Source: an uncultured archaeon (lineage in GTDB: Archaea > Asgardarchaeota > Jordiarchaeia > Jordiarchaeales > Jordiarchaeaceae). Taken from it: a DNA stretch of 15,978 nucleotides. The translations under genes were made by a program, and so were the position numbers. Positions 2,125 to 14,356 of the stretch are shown here, piece by piece (within the stretch, counting starts at the first letter, position 1; the number at the start of each line of letters is the position of its first letter). The stretch lies in contig CAZECW010000131.1 of NCBI GenBank assembly GCA_964510585.1, forward strand, positions 1-15,978, given 5' to 3'. Below the pieces are notes generated by a model. That model saw nothing but the letters and a program-made list of their open reading frames with translations. It was not told the DNA's origin and did not search any database.

Positions 2125-2589
2125 TTAATATCTTCTTCCTCTACTTCTATCACTTCTGTATGGTCTGGATCCCCCATATCTGGATCCTGAATCGCCATAG
2201 CTTGGTCTGTATCGTCTTTCCTGCTCGTAAACCTTGTCCGAGAGGTTGTTTTCGTTGTTTACTTCCATTTCTTCGCCGTCTTCGACTTCCTCGAGGCTTC
2301 CGTATTTGCCAATGTTGAGCCTTAAGGAATTCTTGAATACTGATGTGTAGCCGTTGTTAAGTTTGTAGATGTGGTTTTCTTTCACCTTGTCTATGTCATC
2401 ATTCCAGAGGGACAATAAAATGGTTCCCGAACTGTCGCCCACTAGGGCTTCGGTGACCCTCAAGCTCTCACCGGTTCTTCTTGACACAACTTCTCTTTCT
2501 TCGTTTAGTGATTTTACTTTGAATTTTACATTTATGCTCTTAAGACCTGGTCTTAAGTTCTCAATAATTAAATCTTGTGGTTCAATCAT
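2125..2589 (-). CDS. ssb: Single-stranded DNA-binding protein, single OB fold (crenarchaeal SSB-like) with R/G/Y/S-rich C-terminal tail, 154 aa
   Basis: I-x-x-LRPG-x-x-x-INV-x-FKV, VGDSSGTILLSLWN and GYTSVFKNSLRLNIGKYG are OB-fold features of Sulfolobus-type SSB. Low-complexity tail RRYRPSYGDSGSRYGGSRPYRSDRSRGRRY. Confidence 0.9.
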   Translation of the reverse strand: MIEPQDLIIENLRPGLKSINVKFKVKSLNEEREVVSRRTGESLRVTEALVGDSSGTILLSLWNDDIDKVKENHIYKLNNGYTSVFKNSLRLNIGKYGSLEEVEDGEEMEVNNENNLSDKVYEQERRYRPSYGDSGSRYGGSRPYRSDRSRGRRY

Positions 2590-2685
2590 TTCAATTCATC
2601 TTTTTAAACAAACTTTAGAAAAAGAGTCTATAGGCTAAAAGTCAGCCCTAAACGTTTTTCTATGCATACAATGAAGCACTCCGCG

Positions 2686-2693
2686 TATATAAA
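2686..2693 (-). promoter_or_regulatory. Putative TATA box of ssb copy 1
   Basis: The minus strand reads GAAAAGG-TTTATATA (purine-rich BRE-like run plus TATA), about 97 nt upstream of the ATG. Confidence 0.5.
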
Positions 2694-2808
2694 CCTTTTC
2701 GGAAACCAACACGCAGAACTGAATCCACCCGGAGAAAATGTCCTCACCAGAAATTTTAATACCACTCTTCACCTGCTTAAATACATTAGTGAAATTATAG
2801 GTGTTTAG

Positions 2809-3444
2809 ATGGCTGAATTTGAAATAGTGGTGCCTAACTCAGCAGATAGGTACGATGAGTTTCTGGAACTTTTCGACCGACGAATAAAAATTTCTAGTCT
2901 CAAGAGGGTGGCTAGATTGGGAAGGGCGTCTTGGGATTTCAGTGGAGGCTTTCTTTCTAAGGGGAGTTTGCAAGTTTACCTGAGGGGAAATGATATTTGT
3001 TGTAGGGTAAGCACAGAGATAGAGGCTTTTCTCATAGTTATAGTCATGATTTTAAACTTGTTAATTGGCCTAATTTTTCTGGCCGTCGCCCTGGGAAACC
3101 AGAAAAAAATTGAGAGGGAAATAAGAATAGCCGTGGAGAGTGCAACAACACAAATTTTAATTAGCGCTTCCAAGAAACCCTTCAAAATACCAGTCGTGGA
3201 AGAAGAAAAAACCATGGACTGCCCGGGCTGCGGTAAAGCTTTACCCGAAGATGCAAACTTCTGCCCCCATTGCGGATTCCAACTGAAGTGTATGGTCTGC
3301 AACCTTCCTCTGGGCAGAGACAAAATCATTAGATGCCCCTACTGCTCCAGTCTAGCACATAGAGACCACCTTCTGGAGTATATCAAAGTAAAAGGAAAAT
3401 GTCCAATTTGCGGAAAAAAATTGAAAAAAGACGAATTAGTTTGA
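2809..3444 (+). CDS. Membrane-anchored protein with zinc ribbon and C-terminal RING-like domain (Prok-RING-like), 211 aa
   Basis: Hydrophobic stretch at aa 73-95; zinc ribbon C138/C141/C152/C155; eight-ligand C161-x2-C164-x11-C176-x2-C179-x4-H184-x2-H187-x10-C198-x2-C201. SD-like AGGTG before the ATG. Confidence 0.85.
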   Translation: MAEFEIVVPNSADRYDEFLELFDRRIKISSLKRVARLGRASWDFSGGFLSKGSLQVYLRGNDICCRVSTEIEAFLIVIVMILNLLIGLIFLAVALGNQKKIEREIRIAVESATTQILISASKKPFKIPVVEEEKTMDCPGCGKALPEDANFCPHCGFQLKCMVCNLPLGRDKIIRCPYCSSLAHRDHLLEYIKVKGKCPICGKKLKKDELV

Positions 3445-3480
3445 CTTCACAATTTGGCTTTTACTCTTCCCTGCTTTAGA

Positions 3481-3487
3481 TTTTTTT
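3481..3487 (+). terminator. Candidate oligo(T) terminator
   Basis: T7 run 36 nt after the RING-gene stop. Confidence 0.35.
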
Positions 3488-3666
3488 AAGCTCATCCTCC
3501 ATTGTGATTCTTCGCTAGAGCTAAAATTTATTGAAAAATCAGGTTTGCCTCGTGCATAGGGGCAACTATATTTTTAGGGCTCGTCCCTAATTAAGGTAGA
3601 TTAGAAACTTTTTTAACCAAGAATAAATAGAAATTTTAATAATTTATACCTCGGAGTGGAGATGAA

Positions 3667-4917
3667 TTGAGTTTTGCTGAGACACTGAAATGTTTGGAGT
3701 GCGGTAAGGAATATCCCTTCGATGAAATAATTTACAATTGTGGAAGCTGCGGAAGCAAGGGTCTCTTCCATGGCACTGTTGATGTGATCTACAATTTAGA
3801 GGGAGCAAAAGAGAAAATAGATAGGAAAGTTCTTGAATCCCGCCACCCATCAGTCTGGAAGTACTTTGAGCTTCTACCAATACTCGATGATTCAAACATA
3901 GTTTCCCTCGGCGAAGGTGGAACCCCACTAGTCAAATGCAACGGATACGCTAGGGAAACAAAATCGAAAAGCCTGTATATGAAGAATGAATTCGTTAACC
4001 CCACATTGAGCTTCAAAGACAGAGTTTTTACAGTGAATATTTCCAAGGCTGTAGAGTATGGTGTGAATACCATTGTTATGGCTTCCTCTGGAAACGCAGC
4101 TACGGCAGCCTCAGCCTACTGCGCTAAAGCCGGACTAAACTGCTACATCTTCATACCAGGTGAAGCCTCACTGCCAAAAATCGCAAACATAATCATGAAT
4201 GGGGCGAAAACAATTAAGATTAAGGGAACAGTCGTCAATGCCGCAGTTCTGGCTGTGGAGGCAAGCTGGAAGTGGGGCTGGTACCAGTTAACCACAGCAA
4301 AAGCCCTCAGCCCCTATCAGGGAGAGGGATCAAAAACCATAGCCTACGAAATATGTGAACAGCTAGGCTGGAATGCTCCAGACTGGGTTTTTGTACCAAT
4401 GGGTGGAGGGGACAACATTGGGGGGATATGGAAGGGATTCAAAGAATTCCACGAACTTGGATTCATAGACACCCTTCCAAGAATGGTGGGCGTACAGGCA
4501 GAAGGAGCTGCAACAATAGTAAACACCTTCAACCAGGGAAAAGACTACACAGAAGCACCCATGGAGGAAGCAAAAACAATAGCTGAAGGAATACGCGCCG
4601 GCGTCTGCCCCGGACCATGGCCCCTCATGACTCTCAGAGAGTCTAAGGGAATAGGTGTAGCTGTATCCGACAAGGAGATTTTGGAAGCAGAAAAAATGCT
4701 GGCAAAAACAGAGGGAATATTCTGCGAACCATCCTCAGCAGCGGCAGCAGCTGGCTTCAAAAAACTTAGAGAGCAAGGAAAAATTGACGGAACCGACATA
4801 GTGGTTTGTGTACTAACAGGTGCGGGATTAAAGGACATTGAAGCCGCTATGAAACTCATTGAGGAACCCCCAGAAATAGAGCCAAAAATAACGGAGCTAG
4901 AAAAACTAGTAAAGTAA
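3667..4917 (+). CDS. thrC: Threonine synthase-like PLP enzyme (fold type II) with N-terminal zinc ribbon, 416 aa; exact activity uncertain
   Basis: CxxC...CxxC N-terminus; LGEGGTPL; PLP lysine motif NPTLSFKDR (K117); SSGN; EGxKT; EPSSA; LTGAGLK. TTG start after GGAGTGGAG. Several substrate-binding positions are non-canonical (see findings). Confidence 0.8.
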   Translation: MSFAETLKCLECGKEYPFDEIIYNCGSCGSKGLFHGTVDVIYNLEGAKEKIDRKVLESRHPSVWKYFELLPILDDSNIVSLGEGGTPLVKCNGYARETKSKSLYMKNEFVNPTLSFKDRVFTVNISKAVEYGVNTIVMASSGNAATAASAYCAKAGLNCYIFIPGEASLPKIANIIMNGAKTIKIKGTVVNAAVLAVEASWKWGWYQLTTAKALSPYQGEGSKTIAYEICEQLGWNAPDWVFVPMGGGDNIGGIWKGFKEFHELGFIDTLPRMVGVQAEGAATIVNTFNQGKDYTEAPMEEAKTIAEGIRAGVCPGPWPLMTLRESKGIGVAVSDKEILEAEKMLAKTEGIFCEPSSAAAAAGFKKLREQGKIDGTDIVVCVLTGAGLKDIEAAMKLIEEPPEIEPKITELEKLVK

Positions 4918-4951
4918 CAAGCTCTCTATGCTCCATCATTATCGATCCTAA

Positions 4952-4958
4952 TTTTTTT
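4952..4958 (+). terminator. Candidate oligo(T) terminator
   Basis: T7 run 34 nt after the thrC-like stop. Confidence 0.35.
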
Positions 4959-5592
4959 CTACCGATTCCCCTAAATTCCTGCATCCTAAACTTAAGCTAA
5001 ACAGTTCTGTGAATCGAAACTGGATTCCGTACTAAGAAAAAGAAAACACATAGAAAAAAGAATGAAAAGAGGGGGCAGCTATTTTTCGGATTGCTTATAA
5101 CAAGCCGTTAATACTCCCTACATACAACAAGTGTGCAGGAGAATCAGTTTCGGATGTATTTTTCTCTTGTTTAGTTTGTATATTCTCCGCAGCGTTTATA
5201 GTGTGTTATCTTTTCTTAGACGTTTTAATTGGAGCGGATCTCCCTGGGCTTTTCTTGTGGCAGATCACTAATCTTCCAAGGAGTATCTCCCAGTAGACTA
5301 GTGTTTTTTCCCCAATCGTGATTGTACCCCAGCCTGATTCCACTCAGTCGACTTCTGAGGTAGACATCCCTAAGCAGGTCTCAATAACCTCCATACTACA
5401 AACTTAAAGCTAAGTCTGTAAATGCCCCTCCTTGCCCTCAATAACACGTGAATCTTTTAACAGGCATACTTGAACTATTAGCCACCCTGGGAAATAAAAC
5501 TTATTCGATTCACAAAAAGAGTTAATGATTTCAAGTCTTCTATTTGGGAAGTGGTCTGCAAGGTATGTTGAAACTAAAATAAAAAAGGGGAG

Positions 5593-7038
5593 TTATTTCT
5601 CCCTTGCTGCTTTTCCGGTTTCCCTTACGAACGCTGCCAAGATAGGTATTATTGCCATGAGGATTGTGAAGAACACAGCAGCCCCAAAGAATGTTCCAGG
5701 CATCTGAATTAATGGCGGTGGAGCAATGAGATAGTAATAAACAGGGTTCATGAGCACACTTGACCAGTAATTTGCAAGGATGACATGATTGTAGAACAAC
5801 TCAGCTATGATGTAGGAAAAAGACGATTCCTGGAAGAGGCCCCCCACAAGTGGAAGCACAGCGCTTCCGAGGTGCCCCATAGTGAGCATTATGCCTAGAC
5901 CCAAACCTGCAAGCATAGGTCCCACTGCTCTTAGTTCAACCATCGTTTCGAATAGGACAGGAGCGAGTGCAAGTAGGAAGAAGCCAAAAATCGCAGCCGA
6001 GATGAGGAGAACGTTGCCAGATTGGGTTCCCAAAAGGTAAACCATGGGTATACAGATGATTGGCAGCGTCAGAAGGAAAGGTTTCCTCCTCTGAACTCTG
6101 TCAGAAAACCACGGAATTAAAAGCATACCGACACTTCCGGTGAGGGTGATTACACCCGAGACGAGACCGCCAGTCGTTTGTTCTAAGCGGATGAAAATGA
6201 AGGAGTACTGTGGCGCATACATTGAGATGTAAAGCTCAATCAGCTTCTGAATTAGGGGTGCATTTGACCATGCCATTCGCTCAATGAAGTCGGTTAGGAA
6301 AATGTAGATTCCAAAACCTAAGAAGAAAGCAGATGCGAGCAGCCAGTAGTCTCTAGAACCAGCTATCCTTGAAAGCCCTTCCCTTAGAGGAACAGGTTTC
6401 GTTTCCTCCCAAGGCTCCGGAGGCAGTTCAGGTGCTTCACGAGCTATCACGAAGAATATTACGGTTATTATCGCTGCGACAAAGCCATAGACTAGGAGTG
6501 CATTTTGAAGACTCGTTCGTGGAGCATACTCACCAAACATAGATATGAGCAAGGGTGTGACTATTAGACCCACAACCATTCCCAGATTGTTGGCGAACAT
6601 TCCCAGACCTTGAGCCAGTGCCCTTTCACCTGAGGGGAACCAGTTCACGGCTGCTTTGGTTAGGCTAACAAAGATGAAGGCCATCGCCACTCCTTGGAGG
6701 AACTGGAAGAATAGAAGCCAGTTTATGTCGGGTGAGAAAACCCTGACTATACCCACAGTGGTAGTTAGTATAGCTCCGGCTCCGGTGCAGAAAACCCATC
6801 CTCTCTTGTCCACCAAAACCCCTATGGGAATACTGACGATTATCTCAGCGATGAGAGAAATTATAACTAGAAGTGTTATCGCCGTCTCACTTACCCCGGT
6901 GAGGAAGAATGCCTGTCTTACAGTTGAGGATATGGGTGCGAATGCGAGCCAGATAGGCTGAGCTATAAACCACACCAAGCAGTAGGCAAGAATTGCAACC
7001 CAGCGGTACCTATAAACCTGATACTTAGCAGAAGACAT
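5593..7038 (-). CDS. Major facilitator superfamily transporter, 481 aa (SLC49/FLVCR-like N-terminal motifs)
   Basis: About 12 hydrophobic segments; motif A-like GVLVDKRG and its C-half copy WFSDRVQRRK; WFPSGERA; N-terminal YxVYRYRW. Substrate unknown. Confidence 0.92.
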   Translation of the reverse strand: MSSAKYQVYRYRWVAILAYCLVWFIAQPIWLAFAPISSTVRQAFFLTGVSETAITLLVIISLIAEIIVSIPIGVLVDKRGWVFCTGAGAILTTTVGIVRVFSPDINWLLFFQFLQGVAMAFIFVSLTKAAVNWFPSGERALAQGLGMFANNLGMVVGLIVTPLLISMFGEYAPRTSLQNALLVYGFVAAIITVIFFVIAREAPELPPEPWEETKPVPLREGLSRIAGSRDYWLLASAFFLGFGIYIFLTDFIERMAWSNAPLIQKLIELYISMYAPQYSFIFIRLEQTTGGLVSGVITLTGSVGMLLIPWFSDRVQRRKPFLLTLPIICIPMVYLLGTQSGNVLLISAAIFGFFLLALAPVLFETMVELRAVGPMLAGLGLGIMLTMGHLGSAVLPLVGGLFQESSFSYIIAELFYNHVILANYWSSVLMNPVYYYLIAPPPLIQMPGTFFGAAVFFTILMAIIPILAAFVRETGKAAREK

Positions 7039-8686: not shown

Positions 8687-8750
8687 GGGAGATTCTCCAA
8701 ATACTTAGAACTAAAATTATGTTATGAATGGGAGTTTGGAGAGGAAAAAC

Positions 8751-10898
8751 TTGTCTGAATCTAAAGCAGTTAAAAAATATTCTGTGAAAGCCATAGCTTT
8801 GGATACTGGTGGAACAATGTCAGACACATTCATAATCGATGAAAAGGGAAGGTTCGCTGTGGGAAAAGCTTTGACCACCCCCCAAGAGGAATCAGTGGGA
8901 ATCCTAAACTCCATAGCCGACGCCCTAAGCTATTGGAACACTAAACTAGAGGAAGGAGCGGCAACCGTGGAGGCTCTAGTTTACTCCGGCACCCTAATGA
9001 CAAACAGATTATTGGAGAGAAAAGGCAACAGCAACATCGGAGTCATAGTGAATGCGGGATTCGAAGATCTCCACAGGCTGGGAAGAGCCCTACAGTGCTG
9101 GATATGGCTACCCTACTCGGGGCGTCTACACGCCAGAGAACATGAACACCCCAAACCGCTCATCCCAAGAAAAAACATTAAGGGTGTTCGGGGAAGAATC
9201 AATTTCTGGGGAGAACAGTTGATTCCGCTCTACGAAAACGATGTGAGAAAAGCCGTGGAAGAACTTCTCGACATGGGAGTCGATAGCATCTGTGTTTGTC
9301 TCCTCTGCTCCTACATGAACCCCATGCACGAGAGACGGGTGAGAGAGATTGCAGAAGAGGTTATGGCAAAGAAAGGCAAAAAGGTTCCAGTAGTTTTGTC
9401 CTGTGAACACAACCCAGTTAGAGGTGAAACTCCAAGGCTCAACGCTCTAATAATTGAGCAGTACGCAGCTGAACCCTCAAGACAACAGTTGATTAAACTA
9501 TCAGAAACCTTCAAGAAGAAAGGAGTACGCGCGCCCCTAAGGATACTGACGTCTTATGGTGGAACAATTTCTCCGCAGCACAGGCAGTTGATAACCATTC
9601 TTATGTCTGGCCCCATAGGTGGAGTTATAGGCAGCAAGTTCATAGCGGAAAAGTATGGAATAAAGAACTTAGTATCGTCAGATGTTGGGGGAACAAGCTT
9701 TGACGTGGCCCTAATGATGGAGAAATATGTTCCAACCAAGTGGGAGAGCTCCATCGGAAGATATATACTTAACATACCAACACTGGCCCTGGACTCTATA
9801 GGCGCGGGAACCGGGATGTACGTTAGATACAACAAGATTACCGAGAACCTAGAGTTTGGACCAGAAAGCGCGGGATACCGCATAGGAGTATGCAACGAAG
9901 AGTCAGGAGTAACAACGGTAACCATGACCGACTGCAGCTTGATTCTGGGATACCTCAACCCCAAATATTTCCTTGGAGGAAAGGTTCCACTAAACAAGGA
10001 ACGTGCACTTAAAGCCGTAGAGGAACAGTTAGCGGAACCCATGAAAACTGATCCCTACAGCACCGCTAGGGGAGCGTTGGATCTTATAGAGATAAGTATG
10101 AAGAACCACCTCAACGGTATGATAGAAGGATTAGGATTCAGACCCGAAAACTATGCTCTAATATCGTTCGGCGGAGGAGGACCACTACACGTGGCTGGAT
10201 ACTCTAGGGATATGAAATTCCAAGACATACTGATACCGGAGTGGGCTCCTGCCTTCTCAGCCTTTGGATGTGCCTGCGCCGACCACTCCTACAGACACGA
10301 GAAAACAGCGGATCTCATAATAACTCCTAACGGAGCCATGAACCCCATAGTGGCTATGATGCTGAATGCCACCTGGGCTGAACTCAAGCAAAATATAGTT
10401 GAAGAAGTTAAGAGGGAGGGAAGAGACCCCAGCGAACTGGAGTTCAGACCATCAGTTAGGTTGCAGTATCTGGGAATGTTGGACGACTTGGAAGTGAAGT
10501 CACCCTCGGATAACCTGCAGCCCGACGATGTATGGGAGATTGCCAGAAGATACGATGAACTATTTGAGGAAATTTTCTTGAGAGGCACAAAAAGCCCAGA
10601 GCTGGGATACCACGTTACCAAAGCTATAGCCACTGGAGTGGTTCCGGTACCTAAACCTGAACTTCCAACTTATGAGTTAAGCGGAAAGGAGCCGGAGGAG
10701 AAGGCTTCCAAAGGGTACAGAGAAATATTCTGGGGAGCCGGCTGGCATGAAGCTTCAATCTGGGAAATGGAGCTACTCCAATCTGGAAATGTGGTGGATG
10801 GCCCGGCAGTGATTGAAGCTCCGGCAACAACTCTGCTAGTTCCACCAGGTTACCGTGTGACACTGGATGAACATAGAATTTTCCACATGGAGGTATAA
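8751..10898 (+). CDS. acxA: Acetone carboxylase beta subunit (hydantoinase A / oxoprolinase ATP-binding family)
   Basis: ASKHA-type DTGGTMSD and DVGGTSFD, SGPIGGV, FGGGGPLH, and C-terminal GPAVIEAPATT. First of three tightly linked genes. The track starts at ATG 8724; in-frame TTG 8751 has SD GGAGAGG and the same context as the esterase start (715 aa). Confidence 0.88.
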   Translation: MSESKAVKKYSVKAIALDTGGTMSDTFIIDEKGRFAVGKALTTPQEESVGILNSIADALSYWNTKLEEGAATVEALVYSGTLMTNRLLERKGNSNIGVIVNAGFEDLHRLGRALQCWIWLPYSGRLHAREHEHPKPLIPRKNIKGVRGRINFWGEQLIPLYENDVRKAVEELLDMGVDSICVCLLCSYMNPMHERRVREIAEEVMAKKGKKVPVVLSCEHNPVRGETPRLNALIIEQYAAEPSRQQLIKLSETFKKKGVRAPLRILTSYGGTISPQHRQLITILMSGPIGGVIGSKFIAEKYGIKNLVSSDVGGTSFDVALMMEKYVPTKWESSIGRYILNIPTLALDSIGAGTGMYVRYNKITENLEFGPESAGYRIGVCNEESGVTTVTMTDCSLILGYLNPKYFLGGKVPLNKERALKAVEEQLAEPMKTDPYSTARGALDLIEISMKNHLNGMIEGLGFRPENYALISFGGGGPLHVAGYSRDMKFQDILIPEWAPAFSAFGCACADHSYRHEKTADLIITPNGAMNPIVAMMLNATWAELKQNIVEEVKREGRDPSELEFRPSVRLQYLGMLDDLEVKSPSDNLQPDDVWEIARRYDELFEEIFLRGTKSPELGYHVTKAIATGVVPVPKPELPTYELSGKEPEEKASKGYREIFWGAGWHEASIWEMELLQSGNVVDGPAVIEAPATTLLVPPGYRVTLDEHRIFHMEV

Positions 10899-10903
10899 TT
10901 AAT

Positions 10904-13120
10904 ATGTCGAGAAAGTATATTGGATGGGATAAGAAAAGCTTGAAGGAGATGCTTGAGGAGAGCGAGAGGATTTTTAAAGAGACCGGATACTACTGTGGAA
11001 TAGATAAGCTCAGACTTAAAGAAGAAGATCCATTCAGATATGAGCGTGCCTACGCCAGTCTGAGAGGAGCATTAGTCTCCGCCAGAGAAACCGCGCTGCA
11101 TATTGCCGCCTCGCCCATAGTTAGGGAGATTGGTGAGCTCTGCTTCGCCCTTTACACCCCTGAGGGGGACTCCATAGTTGTTTCAACCGGTATTCTGGTT
11201 CACGTGCACACAATGAGCGAGGCCATAAAGTTTATGATTAGGGAGAACTATGAGGAGGATCCGGGAATAAATCCGGGGGACATTTTTCTCAATAACGACC
11301 CGCAGTGTGGCAATGTGCACACTACCGATGTTCAGACCCTTATCCCCATATTCTGGAAAGATGAGCTTATAGGCTGGGCTGGAGGAGTCACACACCAGGT
11401 TGACACGGGAGGAATAGTTCCGGGACACGACCTGACATCCGCAATTCAACGTTTCGACGATGGGGTGTACTATACATGCTTAAAGATTGGTTCCAACGAT
11501 AAGATATGGAAAGACCACTTTATTAACGCTCGGAGATCTGTGAGAACACCCCTCTACTGGGAGCTAGATGAAAAGTGCCGCCTTGCAGGTGACTTGATGA
11601 TTAGGGACGCAGTCTACAAGTTCATAGAGAAGGAGGGAATAGACTACTATAAACGGTTCATAAGGGAGGCCATAGAGGAAACAAGAAGAATCTTCAAAGA
11701 ACGCGTAAAGGAACGACTAATACCTGGAAGATACAGGGCGGCTTCATTCTTTGATATACCCTCCAAGGAAACAGCTTGGCAACCAAGAGCAAAGGTTGAC
11801 AAAATCTCCAATGAACCCATAGAAATCATAGTTAAAGAGGACGGAAGTCTCTCCCTAAGTTTTGATGGGGCCAGCGGACCCGGAGCTAACCCTATGAACT
11901 GTGACAAGGGTGCTATGGAGGGAGGACAATGGGTTCTCCTAACCCAAGTTCTGATTTACGGAGACAAAGTAAACGATGGAGCATACCTTGCTGTAGAAAC
12001 TGATTATCCCTTGGGAACTTGGAGCAATCCCGGGGACCCCTACCTTTCCTATCAGAGTCCATGGGGTAACCTAATTCCCGCCTACACTGGAATGATGAAG
12101 TGTCTGTCTTATGGACTGTTTTCACGCGGCTATAGAGAAGAAGTGGTTCCAGGTTACGGTTTTACTGGAGACGCCATTCAGGGTGGAGGAGTCTACTCCG
12201 CCGGTCCACTTATGGGTCAGAGGTGGGCCCTTTCAACATTCGAAATTAGCGGTCAGGGCTTAGGAGCAAGCGCAGTGAGGGACGGACTGGACTGGGGATA
12301 CGCTATGTGGAACCCCGAAGCAGACCTTGGAGATGTGGAAACCTGGGAACTATTCCAGGGCGGTATACCCTACCTTTCAAGGAGGGTGAAGCCCAACAAC
12401 GCAGGCTATGGCAAGTATCGGGGTGGAGCAAACTATGAGGGCGTAGCAATGATTGCCAACTCCAAGGACGTGGACTTCTTCGGAGCTAGGGAAGGAATGG
12501 TTTTCCATGGAAGCGGAGGCATGCATGGAGGGTATCCCGAACCAACAGCTTATCGCCTATATGCCAAAAAAACAAATATGAAGGAAATAATTGAAAACCA
12601 GAAAGACTATCCTCTTGGAGACCCTGACCCGGCTAACGGTGAGTTTGAGAGACTCTTGAAGGGAGAAATAACAAGGAAGGAATACTGCACCATTTATCCC
12701 ATAACCCTAGAGAACTATGATTTAATTCACTACGCACTAAGTGGAGGGCCCGGATACGGTGATCCCCTGGAGAGAAGGCTGGAGCTGGTGAAGCAGGACC
12801 TTGACGATGGCATCTACACCCAAGACATTGTTTACAAGGTTTATGGAGTGGTGGCAAACTATGATGAGCAGAAGGGTGAGTGGGTAGTGGACGAGAAAGC
12901 TACACAAAAGCGTAGGGAAGAGATTAGAAGGGAGAGGAAGGAAAAATCTATGCCCTTCAACGAATACTGGGAACGGGAGCGGAAGAAAATTGTTGAAGGC
13001 AAGCTCTGCGACGCGGTTAAAATCATGTATTCTGAGAGCCTCAGACTGTCTAAAAAGTGGGCCAAGGAGTTCCGAGAATTCTGGAAGCTGCCTGAAGATT
13101 TCATGGTGGAGGTGAAATAA
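10904..13120 (+). CDS. acxB: Acetone carboxylase alpha subunit (catalytic metal-binding, hydantoinase B family), 738 aa
   Basis: SPIVREIGELCF, STGILVHVHTM, NNDPQCGNVHTTD and GGVTH. E78/H139/D142/H164 have the same spacing as the Mn ligands E89/H150/D153/H175 I recall for Xanthobacter AcxB (constant offset 11). SD GGAGGT; 5 nt after the acxA stop. Confidence 0.92.
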   Translation: MSRKYIGWDKKSLKEMLEESERIFKETGYYCGIDKLRLKEEDPFRYERAYASLRGALVSARETALHIAASPIVREIGELCFALYTPEGDSIVVSTGILVHVHTMSEAIKFMIRENYEEDPGINPGDIFLNNDPQCGNVHTTDVQTLIPIFWKDELIGWAGGVTHQVDTGGIVPGHDLTSAIQRFDDGVYYTCLKIGSNDKIWKDHFINARRSVRTPLYWELDEKCRLAGDLMIRDAVYKFIEKEGIDYYKRFIREAIEETRRIFKERVKERLIPGRYRAASFFDIPSKETAWQPRAKVDKISNEPIEIIVKEDGSLSLSFDGASGPGANPMNCDKGAMEGGQWVLLTQVLIYGDKVNDGAYLAVETDYPLGTWSNPGDPYLSYQSPWGNLIPAYTGMMKCLSYGLFSRGYREEVVPGYGFTGDAIQGGGVYSAGPLMGQRWALSTFEISGQGLGASAVRDGLDWGYAMWNPEADLGDVETWELFQGGIPYLSRRVKPNNAGYGKYRGGANYEGVAMIANSKDVDFFGAREGMVFHGSGGMHGGYPEPTAYRLYAKKTNMKEIIENQKDYPLGDPDPANGEFERLLKGEITRKEYCTIYPITLENYDLIHYALSGGPGYGDPLERRLELVKQDLDDGIYTQDIVYKVYGVVANYDEQKGEWVVDEKATQKRREEIRRERKEKSMPFNEYWERERKKIVEGKLCDAVKIMYSESLRLSKKWAKEFREFWKLPEDFMVEVK

Positions 13121-13618
13121 GTGTCCAAATATGATAGGAAAACATTGGAGAGACTAATCGACGGAGAATTAACTTGGGAAGAGTTGAAACCCATAATCAG
13201 CGGGCCTAAGGATCCAGACAGATTCGACAAAGTATTAGAAATTCTACAGTCTCGTGTGCCATGGAAGGAAAAGATTCTCTTGCCCCTCCACGAGCACCTA
13301 TACGTGGTTTCAAAAGGGGGCCAGAGGATAGTTAAGTGTGACTGTGGATACGAGTTTGGAGACTATCGTGAGAACTGGAAAACCAAATGCCGAGTTAGGG
13401 TTAGAGACACCAGAGAATCCATTGAGGAAATCTACATGAAGTATATGGGAAGCAACCCCGAATGGGAGGAGCTCCGAGAGTACTACTGCCCAGGCTGCCT
13501 AACATTATTGGACGTTGAGTGTGCACCGCCAGGATACCCCACCGTGTTCAACTTTTTACCAGACATCGACACTTTCTACGAGAAATGGCTAAATAGATCA
13601 CCGCCAGACAAAAAATAG
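13121..13618 (+). CDS. acxC: Acetone carboxylase gamma subunit (zinc-binding), 165 aa
   Basis: L-I-D-G-x-L-x-W N-terminus, KDPDRF, LHEHLYVV, C73-x-C75 and C123-x2-C126, F-x-PDIDTFY. GTG start abuts the acxB TAA, with SD GGAGGTGA inside acxB. Confidence 0.92.
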   Translation: MSKYDRKTLERLIDGELTWEELKPIISGPKDPDRFDKVLEILQSRVPWKEKILLPLHEHLYVVSKGGQRIVKCDCGYEFGDYRENWKTKCRVRVRDTRESIEEIYMKYMGSNPEWEELREYYCPGCLTLLDVECAPPGYPTVFNFLPDIDTFYEKWLNRSPPDKK

Positions 13619-13933: not shown

Positions 13934-14356
13934 CTATCTTTCTTTGAATTCGTCAGGGATGAGGGTGAAGTAGCTTGGGCAGTTATTGAGACTTCTGAGA
14001 GTTTGGCCGCCAACGTATACTAGAGCTTCTACTTCGCGTCCACTATCAGTTAGCACTCTAACAACTGTTTTTTCAAAAAGTCCCGAGGAGACTCCTTCTA
14101 TCTCGTCTAATTTATTTATTGTTTCCTCCCCTACTGAGTAGTAGACTTCACCCTTCACCGAATGCCCTTGGGAAGCCTTTATGAAGGGGTAATTCTTTGA
14201 GTTACACCATAGCAACTTGTAATTTTTGAGGAGGGCTCTCTCGAACTTGAAGCCTCTTAGAATCTTGGATCTGGAGTGCACTTCGATTTCACCATTTCTC
14301 GGATTAATATACTTGCTCAGAAGTGTACCGTAAACAAAAACATTCCCGCAACTCAA
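13934..14356 (-). CDS. Gamma-glutamylcyclotransferase (AIG2/GGACT-like) family protein, 140 aa
   Basis: VFVYGTL N-terminal motif, VxGEVY, and LDEIEG (catalytic Glu position) followed by F-E-K...V...A-x-V-Y. TTG start. Confidence 0.87.
   Translation of the reverse strand: MSCGNVFVYGTLLSKYINPRNGEIEVHSRSKILRGFKFERALLKNYKLLWCNSKNYPFIKASQGHSVKGEVYYSVGEETINKLDEIEGVSSGLFEKTVVRVLTDSGREVEALVYVGGQTLRSLNNCPSYFTLIPDEFKER

Follow-up and report, generated by a model that had tools for sequence, protein, structure and literature searches.

P0001, a candidate membrane-anchored RING-type ubiquitin ligase of an Asgard archaeon

Background

[quoted passage not shown] Asgard archaea have ubiquitin, the ubiquitin-activating enzyme (E1), the ubiquitin-conjugating enzyme (E2), a small soluble RING ligase and ESCRT; to our knowledge, the route of ubiquitin to their membrane proteins is not known and the layout of a membrane-bound ubiquitin ligase is otherwise known from eukaryotes. 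Here we describe a gene of an uncultured Asgard archaeon of the Freyarchaeia/Jordarchaeia (GenBank assembly GCA_964510585.1; 3.78 Mb in 217 contigs, 96% complete). It lies on contig CAZECW010000131.1 (contig C131), whose 15,978 nucleotides are called the window throughout, and encodes P0001, a protein of 211 amino acids. Judged from its sequence and predicted structure, P0001 is probably a membrane-anchored ubiquitin ligase of RING type (candidate E3) and part of this archaeon's eukaryote-like ubiquitin system. An earlier note on this DNA, made from the letters alone, had proposed such a ligase, with a putative role in signalling or in the quality control of membrane proteins.

The closest described systems are the small RING proteins encoded in archaeal ubiquitin operons. 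The operon RING of Caldiarchaeum subterraneum (srfp) is an E3 in vitro and is required for ubiquitylation: mutation of I30 in the first knuckle abolished the reaction and mutations of W58 in the helix or of the linchpin R69 impaired it (PMC5654768). A Helarchaeial operon RING E3 ubiquitylates UEV-Vps23 in vitro (preprint 10.1101/2023.07.25.550441). In the literature that we searched there is no account of a membrane-anchored Asgard RING and no link of an Asgard RING to IFT144 or GATOR2; the prokaryotic-RING survey of Burroughs, Iyer and Aravind (2011) lay outside that search and could already describe membrane-linked prokaryotic RINGs.

Results

The C-terminal finger resembles the RING of archaeal ubiquitin operons

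The open reading frame (ORF) of P0001 (window:2809-3444, plus strand) consists of 211 codons and a stop, and its ATG is the earliest start after the upstream stop; the parts of the protein are listed in Table 1. The earlier note had described a small N-terminal domain, one long hydrophobic segment at residues 73-95, a charged linker and a zinc ribbon of C4 type, followed by an eight-ligand C4-H2-C2 domain: all of these are recovered, the charged linker being present in the sequence and the uncharged run reaching residue 97. The ligands of the C-terminal domain (C161, C164, C176, C179, H184, H187, C198 and C201) have the spacing C-x2-C-x11-C-x2-C-x4-H-x2-H-x10-C-x2-C, in which pairs 2 and 3 are PHD-like, as they are in Caldiarchaeum srfp (PMC5654768). 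Counting those of the ribbon, 12 Cys/His ligands are unchanged in 11 full-length P0001 orthologues (45-97% identity), and the eight of the C-terminal domain are retained in 69-71 of 71 wider relatives.

The ribbon is recognised at residues 138-156 by Pfam Zn_ribbon_3 (35 bits, cut-off 27) and Zn_Ribbon_1 (29.1 bits, cut-off 25), and NCBIfam models gave sub-threshold ribbon matches only. Pfam DZR (PF12773) also passes its cut-off on residues 138-179 (32 bits, cut-off 27.3), but this match skips H184, H187, C198 and C201, all of which are invariant, and DZR is thus a partial description of the protein and not its fold.

An AlphaFold2 model built on a 71-sequence alignment has a predicted local distance difference test score (pLDDT) of 90 and places the ribbon at residues 135-156 and the following domain at residues 160-205, with a helix at 185-195. 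Foldseek matches of the model among solved structures include the RINGs of TRAF6, Rad18, Ring1B and TRIM37, with root-mean-square deviations (rmsd) of 1.0-1.6 Å over 53-55 residues; on residues 159-211, TRAF6 superposes with 1.0-1.1 Å over 53 residues. Independent structure alignment to representatives gives, on the same residues, the Prp19 U-box with 1.1-1.3 Å over 51 residues (Z 8.3-8.7) and RNF4, from the entry of an E2~ubiquitin complex, with 1.5 Å over 52 residues (Z 7.2), together with the RINGs of Ring1B, CHIP, TRAF6, Pex and Slx1 proteins. The matched RNF4, TRAF6 and Ring1B entries are E2 complexes. Among the structural matches listed for the RING model there is no PHD finger and no tandem ribbon, the two folds that the earlier note had named as incompatible with its proposal.

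The family profile, too, matches RING-H2 ligases of eukaryotes, with E-values of 3.7e-7 for RNF126, 3.8e-7 for RNF24 and 1.8e-6 for RNF4, followed by Arkadia, RNF165, EL5, gp78, Hrd1 and RNF38 (E up to 1e-3). The alignment with the RING-H2 of Arkadia is gapless: H184 is the fifth ligand and H187 the sixth, Y191 falls on the conserved Trp and C-P-I-C falls on C-P-I-C. The second ligand pair of P0001, C-x2-C, is offset by two residues; such a deviation of the second pair has been described for Caldiarchaeum srfp, with an extra 'C3B' cysteine (PMC5654768). V163, Y191 and P199, which the earlier note had picked as the E2-contact positions, stand in columns that are conserved accordingly in the 71-sequence alignment (V/I in 68 of 71 sequences at the first, W/Y in 67 of 70 at the second and Pro in 70 of 71 at the third), and V163 and Y191 are the equivalents of I30 and W58 of srfp. 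On sequence and predicted fold, the C-terminal domain of P0001 thus belongs to the operon-type RINGs of archaea; P0001 would bind zinc, with two ions in the RING and three when the ribbon is included.

Two other folds were considered for the finger. A PHD finger would suit the C4-x4-H spacing and was rejected: the fold matches listed are to RING and U-box, and a RING is also what the conserved aromatic residue and the C-P-x-C knuckle indicate. Three sequential ribbons are disfavoured by the fold matches and by the gapless Arkadia alignment. As a separate observation, the top single-sequence match of residues 159-205 among solved chains is a 72-amino-acid chain named aS34 (9fhl_a; E 0.0011), which has the knuckles and the K-G-K-C-P-x-C-G end in common with P0001 and is without the His pair.

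P0001 and the ubiquitin system of its genome

The ubiquitin, E1 and E2 genes on which the earlier note had made its proposal depend are all present in the genome: there are two ubiquitins, three E2s of the UQ_con family, three JAB proteins and four ThiF-family proteins above the cut-off, two of which adjoin a ubiquitin and an E2 (operon E1s). The Pfam model zf-RING_2 matches at seven places in this genome, compared to none in 14 control prokaryotes. One operon, on contig C60, has the order RING (83 amino acids; G000:C60:392-643), ubiquitin, E2 and E1; a second, separate and remodelled ubiquitin/E2/E1 cluster is on contig C157, and there is a third E2. The C60 operon RING passes the Prok-RING_1 cut-off (30.3 bits) and is 52% identical to residues 160-210 of P0001 over 52 residues, with the common motif A-H-R-D-H-L-L-E-[WY]-x-K-x-K-G-x-C-P-x-C-G-K. 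Its core, H-x2-H-L-L-E-aromatic, recurs in 66-70 of 71 relatives; the earlier note had likened this form to Asgard proteins.

A survey of 81 Asgard genomes, each searched for the operon E2 and then for the RING type of P0001, detected both in the same 62 genomes and neither in the other 19, with zero discordant cases. The RING type has between one and 28 copies per genome, and no genome has extra RING copies without an E2. The genome of P0001 also has two Snf7 genes, so that ubiquitylated membrane proteins could conceivably be passed on to ESCRT.

Compared to srfp, P0001 has the same RING variant (C-x2-C as second pair, H-x2-H, a sixth ligand followed at a distance of four by an aromatic residue, and a C-P-x-C-G-K end). 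It differs in its length (211 versus about 83 amino acids), in having also a zinc ribbon, a membrane segment and a domain that is KA1-like, in its position outside any ubiquitin operon and in being confined to one genus. Sequence and model support P0001 as a candidate ligase in which the operon-type RING of archaea occurs in a new architecture.

The operon E2 of contig C60 has a peculiarity of its own: there is no ATG, GTG or TTG ahead of its conserved first helix (L015:1058-1060). The first residues of most other Asgard E2s are Met-Leu-Ser, and in this genus an ATA (Ile) stands at the position of that Met, after GGTGG; ATA is thus likely to be the start codon. An automatic call from the first ATG would remove helix 1 of the enzyme.

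A predicted KA1-like N-terminal domain and an apolar membrane segment

In the predicted structure the N-terminal domain of P0001 is like a KA1 domain. Residues 1-72 align with KA1 of SAD-B (VIA-align; Z 8.1, rmsd 2.0 Å over 69 residues) and with those of Chk1, AMPK-alpha, Kcc4 and MARK (Z 6.1-7.3), where Z-scores of 7-8 are, by the tool's own statement, common among unrelated models. The predicted strand-helix-four strands-helix arrangement resembles that of the KA1 domains of MARK/SAD/Chk1 kinases and of the KA1-like domains of METTL16 and TUT1; the domain differs from them in sequence (4-9% identity, with middling Z-scores) and in an apolar insertion of 23-25 residues before the last helix. 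No Pfam family, including KA1, matches residues 1-125, even at E <= 10, and the look-alikes of these residues in the ESM Atlas are bacterial clusters only, with scores of about 0.9, and uninformative. A relative of 193 amino acids lacks the membrane segment: its model has a pLDDT of 89.7, and residues 1-92 match KA1 (SAD-B, Z 9.5 over 88 residues), with the KA1-like domains of METTL16 and TUT1 at Z 8.1-8.7. Its helix 75-96 corresponds to residues 99-120 of P0001, and the helix motif is kept with and without the membrane segment. A more general cassette of membrane segment, amphipathic helix, ribbon and RING was considered and rejected, as relatives with type-I layout are without the helix motif.

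Membrane association of P0001 is well supported by its sequence: residues 73-97 are 25 uncharged residues with a mean Kyte-Doolittle hydropathy of 3.15 over 21 residues, and ten orthologues have uncharged runs of 23-25 residues with 3.15-3.5 over the same length. How the segment is placed in the membrane can be read in two ways. The KA1 match of the form without the segment spans the helix equivalent to residues 99-120 of P0001, and the apolar run thus falls into the loop that joins the last strand of the fold to its final helix. This loop varies among relatives, with lengths of 0, 6, 20 (polar), 23-25 (apolar) and 40 residues (apolar; in a RING-less paralogue). An insertion into a loop of such varying length, within a compact fold, favours ends on the same side of the membrane, thus a re-entrant anchor with both soluble parts in the cytoplasm, and we slightly prefer this arrangement. 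A single pass with the N-terminal domain outside is only a little less probable: a C-terminus inside is favoured by acidic residues before the run and Lys-Lys after it, a single pass is favoured also by the conserved [S/T/N]-x3-G within the run, and the spacing between segment and RING, about 64 residues, equals that of the type-I relatives and fits a single pass.

Membrane context is the rule in the P0001 RING family

An exhaustive search returned 1,488 family representatives at E <= 1e-3; architectures were counted in the first 162 proteins retrieved. The eight-ligand RING motif is present in 131 of these and nearly always ends about ten residues before the C-terminus. At least one strongly hydrophobic 19-mer precedes the RING motif in 94 of the 131: 46 proteins with one segment, 16 with two, 11 with at least three and 21 with a type-I layout, namely a signal-like N-terminus and a late segment, with large ectodomains. 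Membrane context is thus the rule for the RING family of P0001. Long relatives, from metagenome-assembled genomes (MAGs) of Freyarchaeia and Lokiarchaeia, carry DUF2341, NosD/beta-helix, Ig-like and fn3 domains; public records assign P0001 relatives to Candidatus Freyarchaeota, to Freyarchaeum deiterrae and to MAGs of Lokiarchaeia. Relatives without apolar segment are P0011, P0015, P0016, a 193-amino-acid protein of the complete Freyarchaeum genome and two tandem copies in a congener.

Several paralogues deserve mention beside the family. On contig C136 of the P0001 genome (L020:787-1671 of G000), a polytopic protein of 294 amino acids has a soluble N-terminal part, several hydrophobic segments and the same ribbon and RING tail, with the motif F-H-R-D-H-L-L-E-W-I-K-I-K-G; it is the second membrane RING candidate of this genome. 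Contig C98 encodes a 280-amino-acid membrane protein with a degenerate finger. A paralogue of 185 amino acids on contig C82 (L039:3386-3943) has the N-terminal domain and amphipathic helix, the apolar 40-residue insertion and a C4 ribbon, and no RING; the two families of the class both contain matches to this RING-less type, which is thus more widely spread than P0001. Paralogues without membrane segment (185-195 amino acids) are encoded at L038:323-910 and L038:2932-3489 (contig C197 of G007) and at L037:6829-7410 (G006); one congener has two to three in tandem, and the complete Freyarchaeum genome has one.

Eukaryotic membrane RING-H2 ligases, such as RNF24, the plant ATL/EL5 proteins, Hrd1/synoviolin, gp78/AMFR and Pex2/10/12, have a RING-H2-like finger at the membrane as P0001 does; the PA-TM-RING family are further ligases of this kind. 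There is no similarity of P0001 to these proteins beyond the finger, and within it the C4-H2-C2 arrangement with PHD-like spacing differs from their C3-H2-C3. P0001 has in addition a zinc ribbon, a KA1-like N-terminal domain and an anchor that may be re-entrant.

Alternative explanations

Several results weigh against P0001 being a ligase of the ubiquitin system. P0001 itself stays below the curated cut-offs of Prok-RING_1 (PF14446; 27.5 bits, E 2.9e-6, cut-off 29.1) and of zf-RING_2 (PF13639; 18.2 bits, cut-off 27.3); of the 71 relatives, 58 and 57, respectively, are matched by these models at E <= 1e-3. The cross-brace coordination is read off a predicted model. There is no Arg or Lys at the linchpin position, unlike in most active RINGs: as the earlier note had seen, the last Cys is directly followed by Gly (G202), and then by the basic residues K203, which is invariant in orthologues, and K204; at position 202 of the 71 relatives, K/R is found in only 37 and Gly in 20. 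The Gly-Lys is not necessarily a difference from the linchpin Arg of Caldiarchaeum srfp, and the C60 operon RING also reads C-G-K here. The closest two-domain matches, IFT144 and GATOR2, are scaffolding and not catalytic RINGs. P0001 is not adjacent to any gene of the ubiquitin system, and the gene order is identical in two congeners. Lastly, the co-occurrence of E2 and RING is to some extent a matter of course, since the query also picks up the operon RING; the 19 genomes with neither belong to five families only, and related genomes are not independent of one another.

These scaffolding matches lead to the explanation that the ribbon and RING tail is a non-catalytic assembly module, for oligomerisation or docking of membrane proteins without E2 activation. 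In the tails of IFT144/WDR19, IFT122 and the GATOR2/SEA proteins WDR24 and MIOS, a C4 ribbon is directly followed by a RING-like finger, as in P0001. Modules of IFT-A and GATOR2/SEA score highest among the two-domain matches, both in the structure search (Foldseek E 2.8e-4 to 4e-3) and in the profile search: residues 133-211 match WDR19/IFT144 with E 2.2e-11, a score that stems in part from a low-confidence alignment upstream of the zinc module, and WDR24 with 1e-5, with matches also to IFT122 and MIOS. Similarity in sequence and model hints at a common origin of these tails and that of P0001. The Gly at the linchpin position and the conserved [S/T/N]-x3-G of the membrane segment, suggestive of self-association, would also suit an assembly module. 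However, the IFT and GATOR2 modules stand at the end of large propeller-solenoid proteins and serve chiefly as scaffolds, and in the alignment IFT144 no longer has the aromatic residue or the two His, whereas P0001 and 67-70 of 71 relatives keep all eight ligands and the three E2-contact positions. The RING type went undetected in every one of the 81 Asgard genomes without E2, and the nearest paralogue in the genome is the operon RING, of a type shown to be an E3 (PMC5654768). We regard a purely structural tail as unlikely.

An E3-like role in a different route is, in our view, still less probable: P0001 could be an adaptor for the C157 cluster or for another ubiquitin-like modifier, maybe in a fast-evolving system of conflict or surface sensing and not in housekeeping quality control. 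The genome has two separate ubiquitin-E2-E1 sets and a third E2, P0001 orthologues are 69-76% identical where flanking genes are 80-98% identical, one congener yielded no full-length orthologue and another has tandem copies, and both the varying copy number of the RING type and the Ig-like, beta-helix and DUF2341 ectodomains of relatives would fit such a system. Yet PADLOC defence models give no match for P0001, the C60 operon RING is the closest of the genome paralogues (54% versus 43% and 40%), and the ratio of nonsynonymous to synonymous substitution rates (dN/dS) of 0.2-0.27 is that of ordinary purifying selection. Least probable is a membrane-associated tandem zinc-ribbon protein, with three sequential sites that bind nucleic acid or another ligand and no link to ubiquitin. 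It would agree with the DZR match above cut-off, with the public annotation 'zinc ribbon domain-containing protein' on relatives, with the archaeal aS34 chain as top solved match and with the KA1-like folds of METTL16 and TUT1, solved with U6 snRNA according to their entry titles. It leaves the four invariant residues skipped by DZR unexplained, and it is at odds with the superposition of the model on RING and U-box at about 1 Å, with the gapless Arkadia alignment, with the RING models that match 57-58 of the 71 relatives and with the strict co-occurrence with E2.

The gene, its selection and its neighbourhood

The gene of P0001 looks, from its sequence, like a transcription unit of its own, divergent from the gene of a protein similar to single-stranded DNA-binding proteins (SSB). 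This is suggested by a GGTG Shine-Dalgarno-like motif at 2800-2803, 5 nucleotides before the ATG, a TATA-like A/T-rich box (aaattttaata) at about 2752-2762, some 50 bases upstream of the ATG, and a T-run after the stop (Table 1). No RNA run is listed as carrying window positions 2600-3650; the runs listed with this DNA are hot-spring metagenomes.

Both the N-terminal domain and the ribbon and RING of P0001 are under purifying selection. Compared between three congeneric genomes, dN/dS is 0.20-0.27 for the whole gene, 0.09-0.20 for ribbon and RING and 0.13-0.36 for the N-terminal domain; it is highest in the membrane segment (0.43-0.63), which yet keeps its apolar character. Full-length orthologues were found within the same genus only, with one congener giving partial matches.

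The scanned neighbours of P0001 encode an esterase, an SSB-like protein with oligonucleotide/oligosaccharide-binding (OB) fold, a pyridoxal phosphate (PLP) enzyme, a major facilitator superfamily (MFS) transporter, an amidohydrolase and a hydantoinase/acetone-carboxylase-like cluster. As the earlier note had stated for the window, no ubiquitin, E1, E2 or JAB gene is found among them: none of these families matches in the ten larger neighbouring ORFs scanned. The difference in identity between P0001 and its flanking genes was measured on window positions 2125-7038, compared with the corresponding loci of two congeners (L035 and L036). The SSB-like, PLP and MFS genes are 93-98% identical between congeners, and P0001 diverges far faster. 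Further along, window positions 8724-13618 and 13934-14356 hold a co-oriented cluster of hydantoinase A, hydantoinase B and an acetone-carboxylase-gamma-like gene, together with a gamma-glutamyl cyclotransferase-like gene just downstream on the opposite strand; the region looks like an oxoprolinase- or carboxylase-type module.

Table 1. Features of the P0001 gene and protein in the window (aa, amino acids).
Feature	Position	Strand	Basis
Putative promoter/ribosome-binding region	2752..2803	+	Read from sequence, inference only
Coding sequence of P0001	2809..3444	+	11 orthologues with 45-97% identity; dN/dS 0.20-0.27; synteny in two congeneric genomes
Predicted KA1-like alpha/beta domain at the N-terminus, aa 1-72 (one strand, a helix and four strands)	2809..3024	+	AlphaFold2 pLDDT 93-98
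Apolar membrane segment, aa 73-97, conserved [S/T/N]-x3-G	3025..3099	+	Hydropathy, orthologues
Amphipathic helix, aa 98-121, motif IE.E[IV]R.A[IV]E.A; counterpart of helix alpha2 of the KA1-like fold in paralogues without membrane segment	3100..3171	+	R106 and E110 invariant in orthologues
Flexible linker, aa 122-135	3172..3213	+	pLDDT <50 at residues 126-132; poorly conserved
C4 zinc ribbon, aa 136-157 (C138, C141, C152, C155)	3214..3279	+	Pfam; ligands invariant
Predicted RING finger of archaeal srfp type, aa 158-211	3280..3441	+	Fold matches, srfp identity, Arkadia alignment, Pfam, column statistics
T-rich run, possible archaeal terminator	3474..3488	+	Read from sequence, inference only; about 30 nucleotides past the P0001 stop

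Discussion

The predicted fold, the identity with the operon RING and the ubiquitin genes of the genome support P0001 as a candidate membrane RING E3, for which we propose the following mechanism. The finger would fold as a cross-brace RING, buttressed by the preceding C4 ribbon, with C161, C164, H184 and H187 forming zinc site 1 and C176, C179, C198 and C201 forming zinc site 2. Via V163, Y191 and P199 it may dock a ubiquitin-charged E2, most likely the operon E2 of contig C60, and may promote ubiquitin transfer onto lysine residues of proteins that lie at the membrane or close to it; the apolar segment (residues 73-97) would keep P0001 at the membrane. The KA1-like domain and the amphipathic helix (98-121) are the likely part for recognition of a substrate, a lipid or a signal; KA1 domains bind acidic membrane lipids.

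A bolder proposal goes further, and we consider it doubtful in its entirety: P0001 would be the minimal member of a large, undescribed Asgard family of membrane RING ligases with one zinc-ribbon/RING cassette, and this family would provide the missing enzyme for tagging membrane proteins with ubiquitin in the Asgard ubiquitin-ESCRT pathway; the cassette would be the ancestor of the zinc modules of IFT-A and GATOR2/SEA; and P0001, with a KA1-like lipid-binding domain and an acquired hydrophobic loop, would be a monotopic ligase. We know of no described counterpart to a monotopic KA1-like ligase at the membrane surface.

The main interest of P0001 lies in its small size and tractability within a large family of membrane-bound proteins: with its 211 amino acids and with natural variants that lack the membrane segment or the RING, it is convenient for biochemistry. 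The protein probably places a RING of the operon type at the membrane, and its family consists mostly of membrane proteins, of which some carry large domains at the surface. These proteins would, if active, be prokaryotic forerunners of the membrane and receptor-type E3 ligases.

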